Below, piece by piece: positions 12,796 through 44,579 of a DNA stretch of 64,000 nt. The notes below the pieces were generated by a model. That model had not been told where the DNA came from. It worked only from the letters and a program-made list of their open reading frames with translations, and searched no databases. The DNA comes from an uncultured Candidatus Saccharibacteria bacterium. GTDB lineage: Bacteria > Patescibacteriota > Minisyncoccia > Phycocordibacterales > JAACPR01. Both the position numbers and the translations under genes were made by a program. The stretch spans positions 163,059-227,058 of the forward strand of contig CAZIEY010000001.1 of the NCBI GenBank assembly GCA_964538855.1. Reading direction: 5' to 3'. Position 1 is the stretch's first letter; every line of letters begins with the position of its first letter.

Positions 12796-12871
12796 TGCGC
12801 GTGTAGCTCAGTTGGTAGAGCGGTCGACTTATACTCGATTGGTCCCAGGTTCGAGTCCTGGCATGCGCACC
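12796..12871 (+). tRNA. tRNA with anticodon UAU (tRNA-Ile2-type, decoding AUA), CCA encoded
   Basis: 76 nt. Acceptor GCGCGTG/CATGCGC. D-arm GCTC-AGTTGGTA-GAGC. Anticodon stem GTCGA/TCGAT with loop CTTATAC. T-arm CCAGG-TTCGAGT-CCTGG. Followed by ACCA. Confidence 0.75.
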
Positions 12872-12897
12872 AATAAAAGATTTGCTACAATACACAC

Positions 12898-17354: not shown

Positions 17355-17804
17355 ATGACAAACTTGATCGAAAATCGCAAAGCAGGATTCAACTATGAAC
17401 TCGGAGACAAATACGAGGCTGGTATTGAATTGACTGGGCACGAAACGAAATCAATCAAAGCAGGCCGTGGAAATATGACCGGCTCTTTTATTGTGATTCG
17501 TGGTGGCGAGGCGTTTATTTCAGGACTCGAAATTACATCGTTTCAAGCAAACAACTCCCCAATCGATTTCGAACCGCGACGCATGCGCCGGCTGTTGCTC
17601 AAAAAAAGCGATATTTCAAAGCTCCAAATGGCGGAGCAACGCGACCGTTTGACACTCATCCCACTTTCGTTGTATAATAAGGGTAAGTTCGTGAAGCTAT
17701 CCTTTGCGGTAGCTCGCGGAAAAAAGAAGTCCGATAAGCGCGAATCCATTCGCCGCCGCGAAGACAACCGCGACATCGAACGCACCTTGAAATCACGTCG
17801 ATAA
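17355..17804 (+). CDS. smpB: SsrA-binding protein SmpB
   Basis: 149 aa. IENRKA..Y...YEAGIEL.G.E.KS motif family. Lys/Arg-rich C-terminal tail. Adjacent to the tmRNA. Confidence 0.9.
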   Translation: MTNLIENRKAGFNYELGDKYEAGIELTGHETKSIKAGRGNMTGSFIVIRGGEAFISGLEITSFQANNSPIDFEPRRMRRLLLKKSDISKLQMAEQRDRLTLIPLSLYNKGKFVKLSFAVARGKKKSDKRESIRRREDNRDIERTLKSRR

Positions 17805-17825
17805 TATATTCGGTCATTCACTGAA

Positions 17826-17950
17826 AAATATCGAATAAGTCAAAAGACCTGACGCATACTTTTTGAGTCTGGGTCCTCGCTCCAGGCATTGTCGCTGCGG
17901 AGGCCTCAAAAAGCACGCGTCATGTCTTTTATTAAACTTATTCGATATTT
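17826..17950. other. 125-bp nested imperfect palindrome (cruciform-capable hairpin) between smpB and ssrA
   Basis: Outer arms aaatatcgaataagt...acttattcgatattt (15 bp) plus caaaagac/gtctttt. Inner pairs tgacgc/gcgtca, ctttttgag/ctcaaaaag, and ctgg/ccag. Confidence 0.5.
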
Positions 17951-17954
17951 CTCA

Positions 17955-18326
17955 GGGGATGATCGGCTTCGATATACAATCGCCAATATATGTGCAGAAT
18001 AGAGCTCGAGTAACTCTTAAAAAGGCTCGAAACTACAAATGCAAAATCTGTCGTAAGCCCTTACTTTAAGGCAAACAAACTAGCATTCGCGTTCGCGTAA
18101 GCCAACACGACATCCGCGTATCTTACACCTGATACGATAAGGCGGGTGTTACCCCATCAGGTTAGGTGAAGTACACGCTCTTTGTACTTTTCCGAAACTC
18201 AAGGAGATCGGTCGCGCAACATTTCGTTCGCTCTAAGGTGCACGATCCAGAACAAAAAGCGTACTAGATTCTGTAGACTCATATATTGTCCTTGCATACA
18301 CGCGGGTTCGATTCCCGCCATCTCCA
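17955..18326 (+). ncRNA. ssrA: tmRNA (ssrA), one-piece; predicted tag ANKLAFAFA
   Basis: 5' end GGGGATGATCGGCTTCGA resembles the tmRNA 5' consensus. 3' T-arm GCGGG-TTCGATT-CCCGC and acceptor CATCTCC pair with 5' GGGGATG, including a G3-U70 pair. Resume codon GCA at 18071 and TAA at 18098 give the frame GCA AAC AAA CTA GCA TTC GCG TTC GCG. Confidence 0.8.
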
Positions 18327-18379
18327 CATTAAAAAGAAAATCACCCAACATTGGGTGATTTTCTTTTTAATGTGGAGAT
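18320..18379. repeat. Perfect inverted repeat with 29-bp arms and a 2-nt centre, overlapping the last nucleotides of ssrA
   Basis: atctccacattaaaaagaaaatcacccaa-ca-ttgggtgattttctttttaatgtggagat, verified base by base. Confidence 0.85.
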
Positions 18380-18535
18380 AAGAGGAGTAATGCGGAGCAT
18401 TACGACGGGAATCGAAAGCCGGAGCGGGTTACCTGTTTGGAGCGTTAGCGACAAATAGGTCGCGAGGCGGGGTCGCGAACACTTAGATTTTTATGAGCGA
18501 ATGCGAAATAAAAAGCTTAGTGATTTGTGACCGAT
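18372..18535 (+). ncRNA. Candidate structured RNA element, copy 1 (unnamed)
   Basis: Shares conserved blocks with 20139-20313: GTGGAGATAAGA, ACGACGGGAATCGAAAG, GGGGTCGCGAACACTTAGATTTTTATGAGCGAA, GCGAAATAAAAAGCTTAGTGATT.GTGACCGAT. Helix 18387-18403 shows compensatory changes relative to copy 2. Confidence 0.4.
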
Positions 18536-18663
18536 TCAAGACATTTTTCTCCAAAGTGATTCTAAGCTATTGGGATATTACGTAATCATTGACAAACCAC
18601 ACAACATTATGTAATGTACCAAATAGACGATTCATTTCCAACCCCAACCCCGAAGGAACTCTC

Positions 18664-19092
18664 ATGAACGCAACTGCAGATCTCATTCGCGACGACCGCT
18701 GCACCACAGCACTCAAACCGTTAGTCGAAGAGGGTGTCAACCGTCTGAAGACCTTCATCGTCTGCGCAAGCCTGGGCGATTTGAACAATTGGCACCTTCC
18801 CAAAGTCGGTCATGCCACCCTCAACCTAACGGTTCGGGATGGAAATATCGTCGAAGGGACGATTTCCATTCAGGATGGTGAAAACTTCACTGTCAAAGCC
18901 ATAGTCTCGGGACTGACGGGTAACTGCGTGGCGGTGATTGTGAATAAAAGCGAAGGTCCTGTGAAGCTGTATTTGAACATCCCACTCAAGGCTGACAGCA
19001 ACCCAGCTTTGTCAGCACTTTGTGAGATGAGAAAATGCGAGGAGCAGCAGCGAATTGAGAATGTCGCGACCAGGCTCAAAAACCTTCGATAG
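18664..19092 (+). CDS. Hypothetical protein (GC-rich)
   Basis: 142 aa from the ATG after the leader ccaaccccaaccccgaaggaactctc; the ORF opens at 18589. Followed by a terminator. Confidence 0.45.
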   Translation: MNATADLIRDDRCTTALKPLVEEGVNRLKTFIVCASLGDLNNWHLPKVGHATLNLTVRDGNIVEGTISIQDGENFTVKAIVSGLTGNCVAVIVNKSEGPVKLYLNIPLKADSNPALSALCEMRKCEEQQRIENVATRLKNLR

Positions 19093-19190: not shown

Positions 19191-19198
19191 AACTGTCG

Positions 19199-19330
19199 AT
19201 AGAAGCGCCGGGAATCGAACCAGGAAGGGGTCGGGAAACCTGTGGTTTCCCGTGGAGGAAGGCAGTGAGCGATAGCGAGCGTTGGAAAACCGTGGGTTTC
19301 CAAGTTGATTCAATAGCGAAGCGACCCGCC
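19199..19330. other. GC-rich non-coding segment with two perfect hairpins and a minus-strand tRNA 3'-end-like fragment
   Basis: Hairpins cgggaaacc-tgt-ggtttcccg and ggaaaacc-gtg-ggtttcc. The reverse complement of 19199-19226 reads CCTGG-TTCGATT-CCCGG-CGCTTCT-A (T-arm plus 3' acceptor strand) with no matching 5' acceptor strand. Confidence 0.3.
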
Positions 19331-19377
19331 ATCCCTGCAATTTTAAAAAATCTATCAACATGTAGTATAATTCATTT

Positions 19378-19590
19378 ATGAAAAAGGCTTTTAAAATAAT
19401 ACTCTCGGTGTTGATTATATTTTTACTTTTGTCTGCATTACTAGCTTATCTAGTCTTTAGTGGACATATAGAATGTAATTTCCTAATTACAAACGGGCCT
19501 AGAGTAGAAGATTCGTTTATGTGTCCAATCATCGGTTTTTTGGGGTACATTTGGTATTTCATTTCGCTACCTTTTTCTCCATTCTTTTAG
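19378..19590 (+). CDS. Hypothetical small membrane protein (AT-rich)
   Basis: 70-aa ORF with two hydrophobic segments. Confidence 0.3.
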   Translation: MKKAFKIILSVLIIFLLLSALLAYLVFSGHIECNFLITNGPRVEDSFMCPIIGFLGYIWYFISLPFSPFF

Positions 19591-19809
19591 AATAAGCCTC
19601 TACATCACAAACAAGTCCTGGCCCCATACATTTACCACCTTAAAATAATGGTACAATTATTAGATGAGTAATTATAGAATACATCATTATTTACTAGTAA
19701 TAGTAATCACAATATTAACGATCATCGGTGCCTGGTATTATTTTACTAAAAAAATGTAAGCTGCGCTCGAGACAGCCAAGGTATCAAATCATATATTCTT
19801 AAATCAGAA

Positions 19810-20109
19810 TTGACTGCTTACGAAAATGTAATAAAAAATATCGACGGTAGTCAACATTTTGAAGACTGGAACATATTCCAAAAAATCAAAGATAGCGCGT
19901 CAATTTACGCACAGGACGTAAATAATTGTTACAGTGAACATACTTATCAGATAAAAAAAGGAAATATACTGGTTGAAGTAACCCAAGAGGAATTTCAAGA
20001 TTATTTAATGAGTAGCGCATTTAATAGCAATTTTTGTGAAAGTGCAGTTCAACTTACTAAGTCTGGCCCTAGCCCAGTCTTTATTAAAAATAATTTCTGT
20101 ACAAGATAA
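19810..20109 (+). CDS. Hypothetical protein
   Basis: 99-aa ORF, AT-rich, no motif. Confidence 0.3.
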   Translation: MTAYENVIKNIDGSQHFEDWNIFQKIKDSASIYAQDVNNCYSEHTYQIKKGNILVEVTQEEFQDYLMSSAFNSNFCESAVQLTKSGPSPVFIKNNFCTR

Positions 20110-20138
20110 TACCTTTCTAGTTGGTTCCAAATATTTCT

Positions 20139-20313
20139 GTGGAGATAAGAAGAGGTGCGCGGAGCGTACCGACGGGAATCGAAAGGCGCGGGCGGGGACC
20201 ACTCTGGTCGAGAGTATCGAGACCTGGGGCGCCGAGCCGGGGTCGCGAACACTTAGATTTTTATGAGCGAACGATAGAGAGCGAAATAAAAAGCTTAGTG
20301 ATTCGTGACCGAT
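20139..20313 (+). ncRNA. Candidate structured RNA element, copy 2 (unnamed)
   Basis: Direct, diverged copy (about 70% identity) of 18372-18535. Helix 20154-20170 (ggtgcgc-gga-gcgtacc) covaries with copy 1. Confidence 0.4.
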
Positions 20314-20362
20314 GATTAAAAATCTCTCCTATTTGATTTATACACACGCAAAAACACGCCTC

Positions 20363-20782
20363 TTATTTCACCGGAAATAAATGTTTAACAACTACAAGCA
20401 ACATTGTTGTTATCTGCAAAATAGTTGCAGTAATTAAAGTTCTAAAGTTCCAACTGTCCAAAGAAAAACCCAAATTCTTAAAGCCTTGATAAAAGGTAAT
20501 TGCAAACACTAACCCGGTTTCAACTGCTAAAAATAAAAACAATCTATCTAAAGTATTTCGCTTTAGAGCAATATTTTGTCTTAAATCTTCATTCTCAATT
20601 TCTTTCTTCTCCCGCTCATAGTCTCGTAGTTTATCTGGCACAGACTTACCTGAGCGAGAAAACGAGGATAAATATTTCTTGAAAAATTTGTTATCCGATA
20701 AATCTGAGTTTGATGATGTGATAAAACTCTTAAATAGCGCAATCTGCTCTTCCTGATTATTCTGAGACTTTGTATTTCCCAT
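20363..20782 (-). CDS. Hypothetical membrane protein (cytoplasmic N-domain, C-terminal TM pair)
   Basis: 139-aa ORF, last gene of the 22214-20363 minus-strand operon. Confidence 0.5.
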   Translation of the reverse strand: MGNTKSQNNQEEQIALFKSFITSSNSDLSDNKFFKKYLSSFSRSGKSVPDKLRDYEREKKEIENEDLRQNIALKRNTLDRLFLFLAVETGLVFAITFYQGFKNLGFSLDSWNFRTLITATILQITTMLLVVVKHLFPVK

Positions 20783-20786
20783 AGAT

Positions 20787-21368
20787 TTAACTTTCCAAGA
20801 GTTTTAACCTTTCTAGTCTTATAGACATCGCCAATGGAGAGACATCGAAAATCTCTGCGGTCTCTTCGATGTCCTTCACCTTACCCCACACCTCTCTCAC
20901 TAAATTTTCAGGCATAATTAGCTCGGCAGCAAAATTATTAGCCTCCTTCTCAATCTGACTGCTCTCTTGATCACTTAAACGAAACAACATTTTTGTACTA
21001 TCTAACGAATCCCCTCTGTCAATAATAGCGGATTCTATTTTTAATTTGTCTTGATGTAAAAAATAATGCCCTAATTCGTGAGCTAACGTAAAATGCTGTC
21101 GTGTTTTAGAATCATTTTTATTGATGATAATTGTAAATCTTTGTGCATCCTTCTCAAAAAAGATTACTCCTGATACATTGGACATATCATCAGTAAAATC
21201 GACATATGCAAATTTTAAATCTTGAATTTCACTTTCGATATTTTCATACGGAAAAGGAGACAGGTTTTTTGGATTGTATTTCTGTCTCACTTCTATAGCT
21301 TTAGATATAGCGCGTTCAATTTTTTGATCCATAGTGACAGTATTATATACGATAGGTTGCACACTCAC
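20787..21368 (-). CDS. ImmA/IrrE-family metallo-endopeptidase
   Basis: HELGHYFLH zinc motif and the downstream EANNFAAELIMP motif typical of the ImmA/IrrE (DUF955) family. Confidence 0.8.
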   Translation of the reverse strand: MSVQPIVYNTVTMDQKIERAISKAIEVRQKYNPKNLSPFPYENIESEIQDLKFAYVDFTDDMSNVSGVIFFEKDAQRFTIIINKNDSKTRQHFTLAHELGHYFLHQDKLKIESAIIDRGDSLDSTKMLFRLSDQESSQIEKEANNFAAELIMPENLVREVWGKVKDIEETAEIFDVSPLAMSIRLERLKLLES

Positions 21369-21416
21369 AATAATGCCCGCACAGAGTAACGAAAAATCGT
21401 AATATCTACTCTGAAC

Positions 21417-22214
21417 TTACTCAAGACTGGCTACCCCATCTGTACAAACAAACTTTCCCTCGTCTTTACTAAGCAAAAATGTACTATATATCAAATCTCC
21501 ACATGTTTGATAGTATCTCTTATCGTTAGATACTGTCTTGAATTCATAGTTATCTTTGTTTTTATGTTTTAAATACGAATTACAAACCTTCTGGTCTGCT
21601 TTTTGTAAAAATTTGGAATCACAGTCATTATCTTCAGCATAAATAAGTGCAATTTCGCTAATGCTTATACTTTTTACTTTCTTTTCTGGAATTTTATAAT
21701 CCACAAACATTAAATCCACCAAATCAGAGAGCATCTCTCTACATTTATCACTAGGCGCTTCTCCGCGACACTCTTGATCGTATTTTTTATCTAATTTTAT
21801 ATATTTAGGATTTTTAGAATAATTCAAACCACCTGTATATGTTGAAGGATAAGAAGATGTGTAACTTGGTACATACGTAGGTGTGTAGCTAGGTGTATAT
21901 GTTGGAGTGTAACTTGGAACAGAATACGAATTACTTTCATACAAAGACTTCCCTGTGTAGTAACTTGGATCTGTAATATAAGTTGGAGTATCCCAAGTCG
22001 AGCCTCGAGTACCATACGAACTATTGTATAAACCCTGGCTCGGCTTGTATCCATAATTATCGTACTTCAAACCGTTTGGATTGCTTCTAACATGAGGAGC
22101 AACGTAAGTTCCATTTGATCGATAATACCCTTTAACACTTACATAAGCATCGACATTAAATAACGGTGTAAATGACAATAACAATAAAAATAGACCGATT
22201 AGTAGTTTTTTCAT
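21417..22214 (-). CDS. Secreted Tyr/Ser/Thr/Pro-rich repeat protein with Cys-containing C-terminal domain
   Basis: Signal peptide MKKLLIGLFLLLLSFTPLFNVDA. Tandem PSYTPTYTPSYTPTYVPSYTSSYPSTY repeats (15-bp DNA period at about 21850-21960). Internal Met chosen; the ORF extends to 22313. Confidence 0.6.
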   Translation of the reverse strand: MKKLLIGLFLLLLSFTPLFNVDAYVSVKGYYRSNGTYVAPHVRSNPNGLKYDNYGYKPSQGLYNSSYGTRGSTWDTPTYITDPSYYTGKSLYESNSYSVPSYTPTYTPSYTPTYVPSYTSSYPSTYTGGLNYSKNPKYIKLDKKYDQECRGEAPSDKCREMLSDLVDLMFVDYKIPEKKVKSISISEIALIYAEDNDCDSKFLQKADQKVCNSYLKHKNKDNYEFKTVSNDKRYYQTCGDLIYSTFLLSKDEGKFVCTDGVASLE

Positions 22215-22419
22215 ATAACCCCATCCTACCCCCTTCCAAAAATAAAACAAGCACTCCCTACTCACACCCCACCCCATCACCATCCCTATCCACATCAAAC
22301 ACATCCGCACCAATCACTCGTACCACTCCCGTATAATGAGGTCCGTTACCAGAGCCGCCAGCGCAGTCATATGTCACGTGGTGCCAAGCTATTGAAGGAT
22401 TACGCACCACTTGACATTA

Positions 22420-22448
22420 CTAATATATAAATGTATATTATCAAACGA
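22420..22448 (+). promoter_or_regulatory. Sigma70-like promoter (TTGACA-17-TATATT)
   Basis: -35 at 22420-22425, 17-nt spacer, -10 at 22443-22448, upstream of the 22488 ORF. Confidence 0.45.
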
Positions 22449-22487
22449 CCCCAACCCGTTCTTTACCCACCACATCAGGAGACAGCA

Positions 22488-22763
22488 ATGAAAAACCCCT
22501 CGGAATATTCTGGTCCGTTCATCATCGAAATCTGGAACGAAGCTAAGACGGAACACGTGCCGTCTTCCGCAAGGATTATTGATGGAAATCAGATCAGTGT
22601 CACATCCGGGCGTTTCCACAACTCCTTGGGTGGCATCCAATTCTATTCGGACGGGCAACCCTTCAGCTTTCATGCCTTATATATTCGCAGGATCACCAAT
22701 CCCAGCGGGCAAATTATCTGGAGGAACTGGCATAACAAGGATGAGCCGGTACCCGCCAAATAA
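22488..22763 (+). CDS. Hypothetical protein (GC-rich)
   Basis: 91 aa from the ATG after the RBS caggagacagca. Followed by a strong terminator. Confidence 0.45.
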   Translation: MKNPSEYSGPFIIEIWNEAKTEHVPSSARIIDGNQISVTSGRFHNSLGGIQFYSDGQPFSFHALYIRRITNPSGQIIWRNWHNKDEPVPAK

Positions 22764-22773
22764 CCTCCGCCCA

Positions 22774-22820
22774 CCCCGCTAGTGAACCCCCGTTAGTTCA
22801 CTAGCGGGGTTTCTTTTTAT
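22774..22820 (+). terminator. Rho-independent terminator
   Basis: Perfect 12-bp stem ccgctagtgaac/gttcactagcgg followed by gtttcttttt. Confidence 0.7.
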
Positions 22821-22916
22821 CCTGCCACCTACCTCACACACAATCTTGACTGCGACCCTCACATTGCTATAATACATTTCGTATCCACTCGAAACGTACT
22901 GCATAAGATTCCGTCC

Positions 22917-23426
22917 TTATGTGGTGCGTTTCATTTTATAAGCAAGCTTTTTCTTAAGATCATTCAAAGATTGCAATCTATCATGTGCAGCGAGGCATAA
23001 AATCTTGGCGCAAAAGTTTTTATTAGGACTTACTACCGCCTCAAACTTAGAAACCGAATATAAATACTGGACCAAAGAATAAAAATCACCGTCGTTACTT
23101 ACAATCACCGCGTTTTCATAATCATCGAACTCAAGCATTGCAGTCAAAACCAGATCTGCATCGACATTCCCCTTGCGATGACCTCGTGCATCAAACGTAG
23201 TGGGTTTAAATTTCAAAATAAAACCAGCGTGCTGTAACGTATCATACAAAGACTGATTATTAGGTACAAAACCAATGAATAAGTAAGCTCGTTCAACACC
23301 ATATTTTTCTCTTAAGTACACCCGAAACTTTGCGTAATCCAATTTCCAACCAAGGGACTGAATACCTAAATGTAAGTTCTGACTGTCGATAAAAGCATAA
23401 TTGCGGCGATTAGAAATCACACGCAC
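22917..23426 (-). CDS. NYN-domain (LabA-like) protein
   Basis: AFIDSQNLH, DADLVLTAM, and VIVSNDGDF motifs of the NYN/PIN-like nuclease fold. Confidence 0.75.
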   Translation of the reverse strand: MRVISNRRNYAFIDSQNLHLGIQSLGWKLDYAKFRVYLREKYGVERAYLFIGFVPNNQSLYDTLQHAGFILKFKPTTFDARGHRKGNVDADLVLTAMLEFDDYENAVIVSNDGDFYSLVQYLYSVSKFEAVVSPNKNFCAKILCLAAHDRLQSLNDLKKKLAYKMKRTT

Positions 23427-23793
23427 ATTATACTGACGGGGGTTAAAATATTTTTAAAGAAAGATTAAAGAAATTGTGAGGTTTTTTCTTGTCTTCACTT
23501 GGATAATTACATATAAATAACTTGTGGCATACAATAATCATGATACCCAAAAAAAAATAACAACGAACCAATTATCCATTCTGGAAATATGGAGGAAGAT
23601 TAAAAGAAAAAACACCAACCGAAGTTGATGTGTTTTCGTGTGCCTGGTTACAGTTTTAAAGTGACCGTGAGAGGGTAAATACCCACCAAACACATTTATA
23701 GTATAGCGCGATTTTCATAAAAATCAAGTCCGCGTTTTAACCAATTCCCCCTCCATATTTGCACCACCACCCACCACACGATACTATTACATC

Positions 23794-44189: not shown

Positions 44190-44579
44190 TTACCAAATTT
44201 CAAACATTACTTCTCCACCGACTTTCTTTTCGCGGGCAGTTCGACCAGCCATAATTCCAAGAGGAGTTGAAACAACTGCGATTCCTAAACCATTCAAAAC
44301 TGGGTTGATGTATTGTGAACCTCGGTAAATTCTCTTTGAAAGTTTTGAAACGCGTTTTACGTCTGTAATCGCTGAATCACCGTCTGCATTATAAGCCAAA
44401 GTAACAGTAATAGTTCGCTTTTTCTTATCTGCATCAAATTCAGTGATAAATTTCTCTTTCTTCAAAAGTTTTAAAATCTCCACATTCAAGTTTGAGAGAG
44501 CCACTTCGACAGTCGGTTTACCAGACATAGAAGCGTTCTTCATCTTGATTATTAAGTTTGAAATTTTGTCGCCTACCAT
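44190..44579 (-). CDS. rpsH: 30S ribosomal protein S8
   Basis: 129 aa. Confidence 0.9.

Follow-up and report, generated by a model that had tools for sequence, protein, structure and literature searches.

In a 64,000-nucleotide (nt) stretch of DNA from an uncultured Candidatus Saccharibacteria bacterium (assembly GCA_964538855.1, contig CAZIEY010000001.1, positions 163,059 to 227,058; hereafter, the window), the transfer-messenger RNA (tmRNA) gene ssrA runs directly into a long perfect palindrome and then into the first of two copies of a structured element whose 5′ side is complementary to the tmRNA 3′ end. These elements probably represent a previously undescribed family of ∼110- to 200-nt structured RNAs located directly downstream of tRNA and tmRNA genes in Patescibacteria. 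Members of the family share an anatomy, are linked to tRNA genes, match the neighboring gene with their ends, and have a core that covaries and folds preferentially on one strand, all of which we observed directly. The palindrome itself is best read, at slightly better than even confidence, as a composite of the ssrA terminator hairpin and the tmRNA 3′ end pairing with the anti-acceptor arm of element copy 1.

The ssrA gene is a complete, standard one-piece tmRNA on the plus strand (17955 to 18328); ARAGORN places it at 17955 to 18327 with the tag AKSVVSPYFKANKLAFAFA*, and Rfam model RF00023 matches it with 96.6 bits (E = 3e-37; end at 18327/18329). CCA is not encoded, and the gene end reads ...CAUCUCC-A-CA. 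An earlier note on this DNA had described a perfect palindrome with 29-base-pair (bp) arms at this point, and a repeat search returned it: positions 18320 to 18348 and 18351 to 18379, both given on the plus strand, are 100% complementary around a 2-nt CA loop. The note's view that chance is an unlikely source also holds, as the region folds as RNA at −53.6 kcal/mol compared to −20.4 ± 3.2 kcal/mol for 200 dinucleotide shuffles (z = −10.3), none of which was as good. The 33-mer core of the palindrome has no further copy within the window. From the center outwards the palindrome has four layers, namely an 8-bp stem (TCACCCAA, 18341 to 18348, and TTGGGTGA, 18351 to 18358), an A-tract (AAAAAGAAAA, 18331 to 18340) facing a U-tract (TTTTCTTTTT, 18359 to 18368), TT facing AA, and finally ATCTCCACA of the tmRNA 3′ end (18320 to 18328) facing TGTGGAGAT (18371 to 18379). 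By the ARAGORN and Rfam placements, the left arm thus opens with the final 8 nt of ssrA (ATCTCCAC), and the right arm closes with TGTGGAGAT, which comprises the first bases of the repeated element and is the anti-acceptor arm of its copy 1; both placements agree with the note.

The inner 18 bp of the palindrome are predicted to be an ordinary terminator hairpin of ssrA. Read from the sequence, this putative intrinsic terminator (18331 to 18368, plus strand) is of the bidirectional type, with an A-tract, an 8-bp stem, and a U-tract; the hairpin TCACCCAA-CA-TTGGGTGA begins 13 nt past the tmRNA end and is followed by TTTTCTTTTT, giving the stem-loop and U-tract by which such terminators are recognized. 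RNAfold assigns −10.9 kcal/mol to the stem alone and −21.7 kcal/mol to the stem with its tracts. A consensus terminator scan of the window did not list this hairpin, probably owing to the scan's rules on loop size (3 to 8 nt) and tail. Since relatives without the element have equally long A/T-extended terminator palindromes, as in L019 (L-numbers label our comparison loci, which are tmRNA loci of relatives and metagenome contigs), where 19-bp arms (one mismatch allowed) reach 2 nt into the tmRNA, only the outer 9 to 11 bp need a special explanation. They exist because the element that starts at 18371 opens with the complement of the tmRNA acceptor 3′ strand, and the terminator hairpin and the acceptor/anti-acceptor pairing are in register because the trailer and leader are equally long. 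In the minimum-free-energy structure of the whole tmRNA-hairpin-element cotranscript, 18319 to 18328 pair with 18371 to 18384 and not with the tmRNA 5′ strand; the note had proposed that the acceptor 3′ strand is sequestered in the precursor, and the predicted fold concurs.

The two copies in the window were delineated with covariance models and folding. Copy 1 (18371 to 18553 on the plus strand, comprising 18371 to 18535 plus a tail) consists of the anti-acceptor arm (18371 to 18379), a hairpin termed P1 (18387 to 18403), an anti-T-arm segment (GACGGGAATCGAA, 18404 to 18416), a junction helix (GCC, 18418 to 18420, with GGC, 18466 to 18468) enclosing variable arm 2 (18424 to 18463), and a long hairpin (18471 to 18532). 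Its 3′ tail (18532 to 18553) is a degenerate copy of the tmRNA end, CGATTCAAGACATTTTTCTCCA. Copy 1 scores 197 bits with R1, the covariance model built from the two window copies, and 113 bits (E = 2.6e-32) with R2, a further covariance model. Copy 2 lies at 20138 to 20330 on the plus strand (20138 to 20313 plus a tail) and scores 95 bits with R2; its two antisense arms to the tmRNA are identical to those of copy 1, its arm 2 is different, its P1 differs from that of copy 1 by compensatory changes, and its 3′ half is 97 to 100% identical to that of copy 1, with a degenerate 3′ tail. The body of the element is ∼165 nt long in the window. Both copies fold better on the plus than on the minus strand (copy 1, −62.1 versus −39.2 kcal/mol; copy 2, −63.3 versus −44.4 kcal/mol). 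With its filters off, the R2 search found no copies in the window beyond these two.

The 5′ end of the element is a bipartite antisense of tmRNA nt 54 to 64 and 67 to 75, with perfect arms in both window copies: the anti-acceptor arm is followed by P1 and then by GACGGGAATCGAA, the complement of the T-loop and of the 3′ strand of the T-stem. Because these arms have been kept while the copies' own 3′ copies of the tmRNA end have decayed (CGATTCAAGACATTTTTCTCCA in copy 1, CGATGATTAAAAATCTCTCC in copy 2), the arms have no good partner other than the tmRNA 3′ end. When they are cofolded with that end, a three-way junction results, and the net gain amounts to −17 kcal/mol in copy 1 and −19 kcal/mol in copy 2. 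A further segment between the copies (19195 to 19335, plus strand) may, judging by its sequence, be a diverged relative of the element lacking an adjacent cognate tRNA; it carries AGAAGCGCCGGGAATCGAACC, a contiguous reverse complement of a tRNA-type 3′ end (TTCGATTCCCGGCGCTTCT), of which 13 nt complement the tmRNA T-arm, and it has two hairpins downstream. Neither R1 nor R2 matches this segment, and so its family membership is unproven.

Homologues are widespread among Patescibacteria contigs. Scanning metagenomes by core motif and filtering the hits with R1 and R2 gave, together with the tmRNA loci of relatives, 67 copies in 53 sources. At least 43 of the 67 follow a same-strand tRNA or tmRNA gene at a distance of no more than 120 nt: for 41 the gene was detected directly, and another 2, initially scored as having no tRNA within 700 nt, stand behind a tmRNA that ARAGORN missed (L011, L016). 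The remainder comprise 6 copies in tandem behind another copy, 5 with a tRNA 121 to 700 nt upstream, 4 at a contig edge, and 9 with no tRNA within 700 nt (L011 and L016 removed), window copy 2 and a displaced copy in L010 among them. The 41 adjacent genes represent tmRNA and 16 tRNA identities (Ser, Arg, Pro, Asn, Lys, Trp, Gly, Gln, Cys, Phe, Ile, Thr, Glu, Tyr, Leu, and Val). Behind tmRNA specifically, R1/R2 homologues follow at 40 to 56 nt in L003, L007, L011, L014, L016, and L032, one copy lies 5 kb downstream in L010, and L002 and L013 have the same arms, though R1 missed them. Protein genes downstream of the element are not conserved and differ in every relative.

At gathering score, Rfam 15 has no family for the element in the window or in 14 further loci, and in the literature searched we found no published description of an RNA element with ends copied from a neighboring tRNA. 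Early scan patterns (the 33-mer, an arm pattern, and a 12+9 anchor pattern) returned nothing or chance matches in viral contigs, and a scan of IMG/VR viral sequences with the core pattern gave 25 loci, 0 of which match R2. Two or three copies stand in tandem behind one tRNA or tmRNA in L098 (5906 to 6480, minus strand), L016 (7036 to 7334), L003 (289 to 745, minus strand), and L109 (651 to 1005), and in these arrays each unit is followed by its own copy of the neighboring gene's 3′ end.

The ends of the element are tailored to the neighboring gene. Of 32 copies, 26 carry an exact reverse complement of at least 10 of 12 nt (T54 to C65) of their own tRNA, compared to 53 of 950 noncognate comparisons (5.6%); 12 of the 32 complement the acceptor strand over at least 7 nt (against 7.7%), and a direct copy of at least 7 nt of the acceptor strand follows at the 3′ side in 20 (against 6.8%). 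These direct copies begin at C56 of the T-loop. The 5′ side of the element always covers the T-loop and the T-stem 3′ strand of its neighbor. A long form adds the acceptor 3′ strand by way of the anti-acceptor arm, with P1, whose loop is often CUGC, at the acceptor/T-stem junction; a short form starts at the anti-T-arm segment, without an anti-acceptor arm.

Matching extends to the idiosyncrasies of individual genes. The arms follow unusual tmRNA ends (GGAAGCGG facing CCGCTTCC in L002, GAGAAGGGGGGA facing TCCCCCCTTCTC in L013), and the anti-T-loop arm reads AATTGAA or AGTTGAA where the tmRNA T-loop reads TTCAATT or TTCAACT, respectively (L032 pairs AGTTGAA with TTCAACT). Without exception, the arms complement the 3′ strand by Watson-Crick pairing. 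Where the tmRNA has G3·U70, the element has A3 in the place of that G; the arm is a complement of the 3′ strand and not a copy of the 5′ strand. Opposite T-stems that contain G·U pairs (L144, L181), the arm (CAGGG or AGAGG) again complements the 3′ strand in Watson-Crick fashion. On the 3′ side, the elements of L007, L011, and L032 end in a direct copy of the tmRNA 3′ end (17 to 22 nt from the T-loop) followed by a terminator of their own, and behind tRNA-Lys in L109 there is an exact 57-nt duplication of the gene's 3′ end plus terminator. The two ends of the element are predicted to form an acceptor-like plus T-stem-like helix in L032, L011, L007, L107, L109, and L181; this helix has decayed in both window copies.

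Between these ends lies a conserved core with the features of a structured RNA. Aligned across 23 sequences (alignment A6), it reads UCGAA-A-GNC / GGA*GA internal loop plus variable arm / GN′C-GG-GGUCGCGA...UYGUGACC and forms a three-way junction. The middle pair of its 3-bp junction helix (GNC/GN′C) is GC in 9 cores, CG in 9, AU in 4, and UA in 1, with no breaks, and the hairpin base GGUCGCGA/UYGUGACC retains a conserved G·U pair in 22 of the 23. The tandem G*A of the internal loop hints at a protein partner of the L7Ae/YbxF type. Overall, 97.7% of cells are paired, compared to at most 40% in slid controls, and double-change cells number 71 against 21.8 in shuffles, with 0 of 500 shuffles as high. 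Folding is better on the tRNA strand for 43 of 43 copies, by a mean of 12 kcal/mol, which argues for an RNA made in the direction of the tRNA.

Four other ideas about the element were considered and set aside. A kissing interaction between the P1 loop (CUGC) and the junction motif GCAG/GGAG showed no covariation by eye. Homology of GGGAAUCGAA to the tmRNA D-loop was rejected, since the element covaries with the T-loop and D-loops do not. A tRNA or tmRNA gene on the minus strand, convergent with ssrA, was likewise discarded: ARAGORN and Rfam find nothing on that strand, and folding there is worse for all 43 copies. Finally, a role as leader or riboswitch of the 142-amino-acid open reading frame (ORF) at 18664 was rejected, as copy 2 faces convergent genes and the downstream genes differ in every relative.

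The palindrome is one instance of this broader architecture. A continuous, near-perfect hairpin extends at least 6 nt into the gene in the window (29 bp), in L003 (27 bp), behind tRNA-Arg in L109 (25 bp), behind tRNA-Gly in L098 (18 bp, no U-tract), and in L159 (13 bp); the earlier note had asked whether relatives share the palindrome, and the same architecture is present in L003 and at the L109 and L098 loci. Interrupted versions occur in L016, L014, L032, L083, and L093. Since relatives have the same architecture, the palindrome is not a local accident, and the window is an extreme case of a general arrangement in which many other junctions are interrupted.

The note had further suggested that the palindrome could be the scar of an attachment (att) site, and here the evidence runs the other way. 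The only other exact copy of the 11-mer ATCTCCACATT, at 44476, has no extended identity and falls within the gene for ribosomal protein S8 (rpsH), part of the SecY/ribosomal-protein operon; matches with one mismatch likewise show no extension, and so the window offers no right-hand attachment site (attR). The ORFs scanned in the window include no integrase or recombinase; for them, Pfam reports an M78 peptidase, NYN and NUDIX-type proteins, and housekeeping functions. A genuine island does occupy the equivalent position in L010 (6860 to 12030), where ∼5.1 kb encoding a large, 535-amino-acid serine recombinase (Resolvase and Zn_ribbon_recom domains) is inserted exactly at the tmRNA 3′ end, between the tmRNA and the old terminator plus element. 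The recombinase gene ends in codons antisense to the tmRNA T-arm and acceptor strand, and therefore the island itself supplies the tmRNA 3′ end; given the island's position ahead of the terminator and element, the latter belongs to the host side and is not part of the insertion.

We propose that the element is transcribed together with ssrA or the upstream tRNA by read-through, and that its arms would clamp a tRNA-type 3′ strand, either that of the element's own 3′ copy or that of the upstream gene, so as to create an acceptor/T-stem-like helix closing the core. Such pairing would sequester the acceptor 3′ strand of the tmRNA in read-through transcripts, and the acceptor-like helix would probably present RNase P or RNase Z with tRNA-like ends, or RNase III with a long duplex. 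Cotranscription, pairing in vivo, and processing are steps that we infer. Cotranscription is implied by the hairpin-free spacers of 6 to 12 nt that separate tRNA and element in several relatives (L092, L100, L108, L112, L121, and L156), and in many relatives there is no room for a terminator or promoter between the two. We hold this overall explanation, a terminator plus a tRNA-end-matched RNA element behind ssrA, with modest confidence.

Several points weigh against that explanation. We infer not only transcription and processing but also read-through of what looks like a good terminator, with an 8-bp stem and a U-tract. A continuous near-perfect hairpin reaching at least 6 nt into the gene occurs at only 5 of 30 junctions (one mismatch allowed), and the short-form copies lack an anti-acceptor arm altogether. 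The strictly Watson-Crick arms, in which no G·U is kept, would suit DNA-templated copying at least as well as they suit selection for an RNA helix. Multicopy spread, tandem arrays, presence or absence at related tmRNA loci, and the 57-nt duplication in L109 point to insertion or duplication dynamics for which the explanation does not account. In addition, the metagenome scan demanded an exact core motif, and the resulting sample is biased towards one subclade.

According to the first rival, the element is a miniature nonautonomous mobile element that integrates, in the manner of genomic islands, at the segment of tRNA and tmRNA genes from the T-loop to the 3′ end, with the 3′ copies as attL/attR-type sites (left and right attachment sites) and the palindrome as the junction on the attL side. 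The direct gene-end copies starting at T-loop C56 behind 20 of 32 copies fit this idea, as do the L109 tRNA-Lys duplication with its terminator, the arrays in L098, L016, L003, and L109, the variable presence of the element among related tmRNA loci, and the lineage-specific core features shared by copies behind different tRNAs of one contig (L109, L181) and the fact that two contigs of the same strain in Logan assemblies both end at 18327. However, the copies in the 53 contigs have no recurrent integrase, transposase, or reverse transcriptase nearby and share only housekeeping genes as neighbors, and the viral loci with the core motif all fail to match R2. The window, with neither attR nor a recombinase among its scanned ORFs, gives the rival no help, and the core shows covariation of the RNA type together with a strand-specific G·U pair. 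To our knowledge, no known integration mechanism yields an inverted, target-matched copy split by a hairpin. We consider this rival unlikely, though it is the best placed of the alternatives.

Less probable still is an origin as a by-product of DNA metabolism, in which quasi-palindrome correction or fold-back template switching at the terminator hairpin inverted the tmRNA 3′ end and left a helix without function. Such copying would explain why the complementarity tracks gene plus trailer (ACAUU) and not the mature CCA end, why the arms are strictly Watson-Crick even at position 3 opposite U70, and why perfect pairing continues through nonconserved trailer bases in the window, in L003, and at the tRNA-Arg of L109; the long, near-perfect terminator palindrome of element-less L019, which also enters the tmRNA by 2 nt, is in keeping with it as well. 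Yet a single fold-back could not produce the second arm, which lies beyond P1, and the bipartite layout recurs behind 16 tRNA types and tmRNA, even where there is no terminator. The arms of the two window copies are moreover identical while P1, arm 2, and the 3′ tails have diverged, which resembles constraint.

A third rival casts the element as the 5′ portion of a second, circularly permuted two-piece tmRNA- or tRNA-like gene partnered by the upstream acceptor 3′ strand; it is largely refuted, and we give it very little credence. The order of 3′ acceptor strand, loop, and 5′ acceptor strand is indeed the permuted-tmRNA signature, model RF04321 matches weakly over the junction (21.8 bits in the window, 27.5 bits in L154), and the L032 element folds as a four-arm, cloverleaf-like RNA with a 9-bp acceptor-like closing stem. 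But the RF04321 scores are far under the 47-bit gathering threshold, ARAGORN finds no tmRNA in the element and hence no tag reading frame, the alanine identity pair G3·U70 has given way to A3-U70, pairing of the second arm with the T-loop would destroy the T-arm, and ordinary tRNAs have the same element behind them. The remaining reading, a plain bidirectional terminator whose extra 11 bp arose by chance, is favored by the inner 18 bp and AAT/ATT, which look like other terminators of these AT-rich genomes (L019), but it is refuted on comparative sequence grounds by the recurrence of the 9-nt acceptor match in terminator-less copy 2 and in many relatives with compensating changes.

A bolder reading would be that the family constitutes a new RNA class whose members are each addressed to a single tRNA or tmRNA, either as a dedicated antisense partner in cis or trans (here, an anti-tmRNA) or as a self-propagating element that rewrites its own arms; we regard this only as a tentative possibility, with well under an even chance. 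In the antisense version, the RNA might hold or hand over the neighbor's 3′ acceptor/T-arm strand. In the self-propagating version, the element might home to tRNA-type 3′ ends and have its arms rewritten from the target, leaving one inverted and one direct copy. Either mechanism, if true, would be unprecedented in bacteria. Should the element be a functional RNA, Patescibacteria hold an RNA family in which each member is sequence-tailored to one tRNA or tmRNA, and minimal genomes would have an extra layer in tRNA/tmRNA maturation, quality control, or regulation; if it is mobile, a protein-less element is aimed at the most conserved integration hotspot of bacteria and copies the target into its own ends. 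The family also accounts for breaks in assemblies and for the spurious "tRNA fragments" that follow tRNA genes in genomes of the candidate phyla radiation, and it supplies a new covariance model for annotation.

Further features surround ssrA in the window. The gene lies directly downstream of smpB (17355 to 17804, plus strand), a 149-amino-acid ORF whose counterparts in relatives are annotated as PF01668 SmpB in Pfam; the SmpB sequence points to Patescibacteria (candidate phyla radiation), with 56% identity to the closest species representative. The spacer between the two genes contains a long imperfect hairpin (17811 to 17965; arms 17811 to 17840 and 17936 to 17965, 87%) that holds a nested pair (17842 to 17867 and 17905 to 17930). 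The right arm of this hairpin includes tmRNA nt 1 to 11, and RNAfold pairs 10 of these 11 with the leader, so flanking sequence may hold the tmRNA 5′ end too; such leader pairing is also predicted in L007, L032, L008, L012, and L020 and not in L003 or L001. In two independent Logan assemblies of the same strain (L075, L076), the smpB-ssrA contig ends at ...CCATCTCCAC, the last tmRNA base (18327), which is 22 nt before the palindrome-caused break expected of a k = 31 graph and hints at population sequence heterogeneity right after ssrA.

A tRNA-Ile with the rare anticodon UAU (12797 to 12872) lies a few kilobases from smpB, as it does in many relatives; tRNA-Ile(UAU) is followed by element copies in L010 (3240 to 3319) and L003 (289 to 745), and there is no copy behind the tRNA-Ile(UAU) of the window. 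Behind the elements, 19300 to 23500 is low in G+C content (0.33 to 0.38) and accessory-looking, with genes for an M78/IrrE-type peptidase (20787 to 21368, minus strand), a small membrane protein, a secreted repeat protein, and an NYN-domain protein (22917 to 23426, minus strand), and with no recombinase among the ORFs scanned.

Among known systems, the center of the palindrome, an 8-bp G+C-containing stem between complementary A- and U-tracts right after an RNA gene, resembles rho-independent bidirectional terminators; the helix in the window differs from them in running 11 bp further, into the tmRNA acceptor strand and into the next RNA. The duplicated segment, from the T-loop to the gene 3′ end, is that of the att sites of genomic islands, which duplicate tRNA/tmRNA 3′ ends (Williams, PMC11915505), and L010 has a real serine-recombinase island at this very site. 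In contrast to islands, however, the unit between the repeats is 110 to 200 nt long, has no integrase, and carries a conserved RNA fold and an inverted, target-matched copy, and the window is without an attR. Permuted two-piece tmRNA (RF04321) shares the placement of acceptor 3′ strand, loop, and complementary 5′ strand on one transcript; unlike it, our element follows a complete standard tmRNA, lacks a tag frame, G3·U70, and T-arm, and also occurs behind ordinary tRNAs. Mimics of tRNA such as the bacterial Y RNA YrlA (PMC4201824) and mascRNA offer a parallel in that the ends of well-preserved elements are predicted to form an acceptor-plus-T-stem-like helix, perhaps readable by tRNA-processing enzymes. 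Our element differs in mimicking a specific neighboring tRNA by sequence and in having no T-loop/D-loop elbow, its T-loop bases being paired with the 5′ arm and the loop replaced by the three-way-junction core. No tRNA-clan or Y RNA model matches the element; in Rfam, its only match is the weak one of RF04321 where tmRNA and element meet.

Group I introns in tmRNA and tRNA T-loops (PMC11915505, PMC13011429) share with our element a boundary in the T-loop (C56, for the 3′ direct copy) and an internal segment that pairs with flanking exon-like sequence, and RNA elements associated with tRNAs abound in Patescibacteria. In the present case, though, the upstream gene is uninterrupted (for ssrA, the 96.6-bit match), the core of the element is far smaller, and the group I intron model RF00028 has no match at E ≤ 1 in the window or at E ≤ 5 in 14 other loci. 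No cognate recombinase or nuclease gene stands beside any copy, as would be the case for IS110 bridge RNA or for the omega RNA of TnpB/IscB, and no related autonomous, transposase-bearing copy, as expected of miniature inverted-repeat transposable elements (MITEs) or insertion sequences, was found in the 53 contigs. Like MITEs and other small repeats, the element is small, multicopy, and structured, with inverted ends and flanking direct repeats; unlike them, it has ends that vary and are copied from each neighboring tRNA, a position and strand fixed relative to that tRNA, and covariation of the RNA type.

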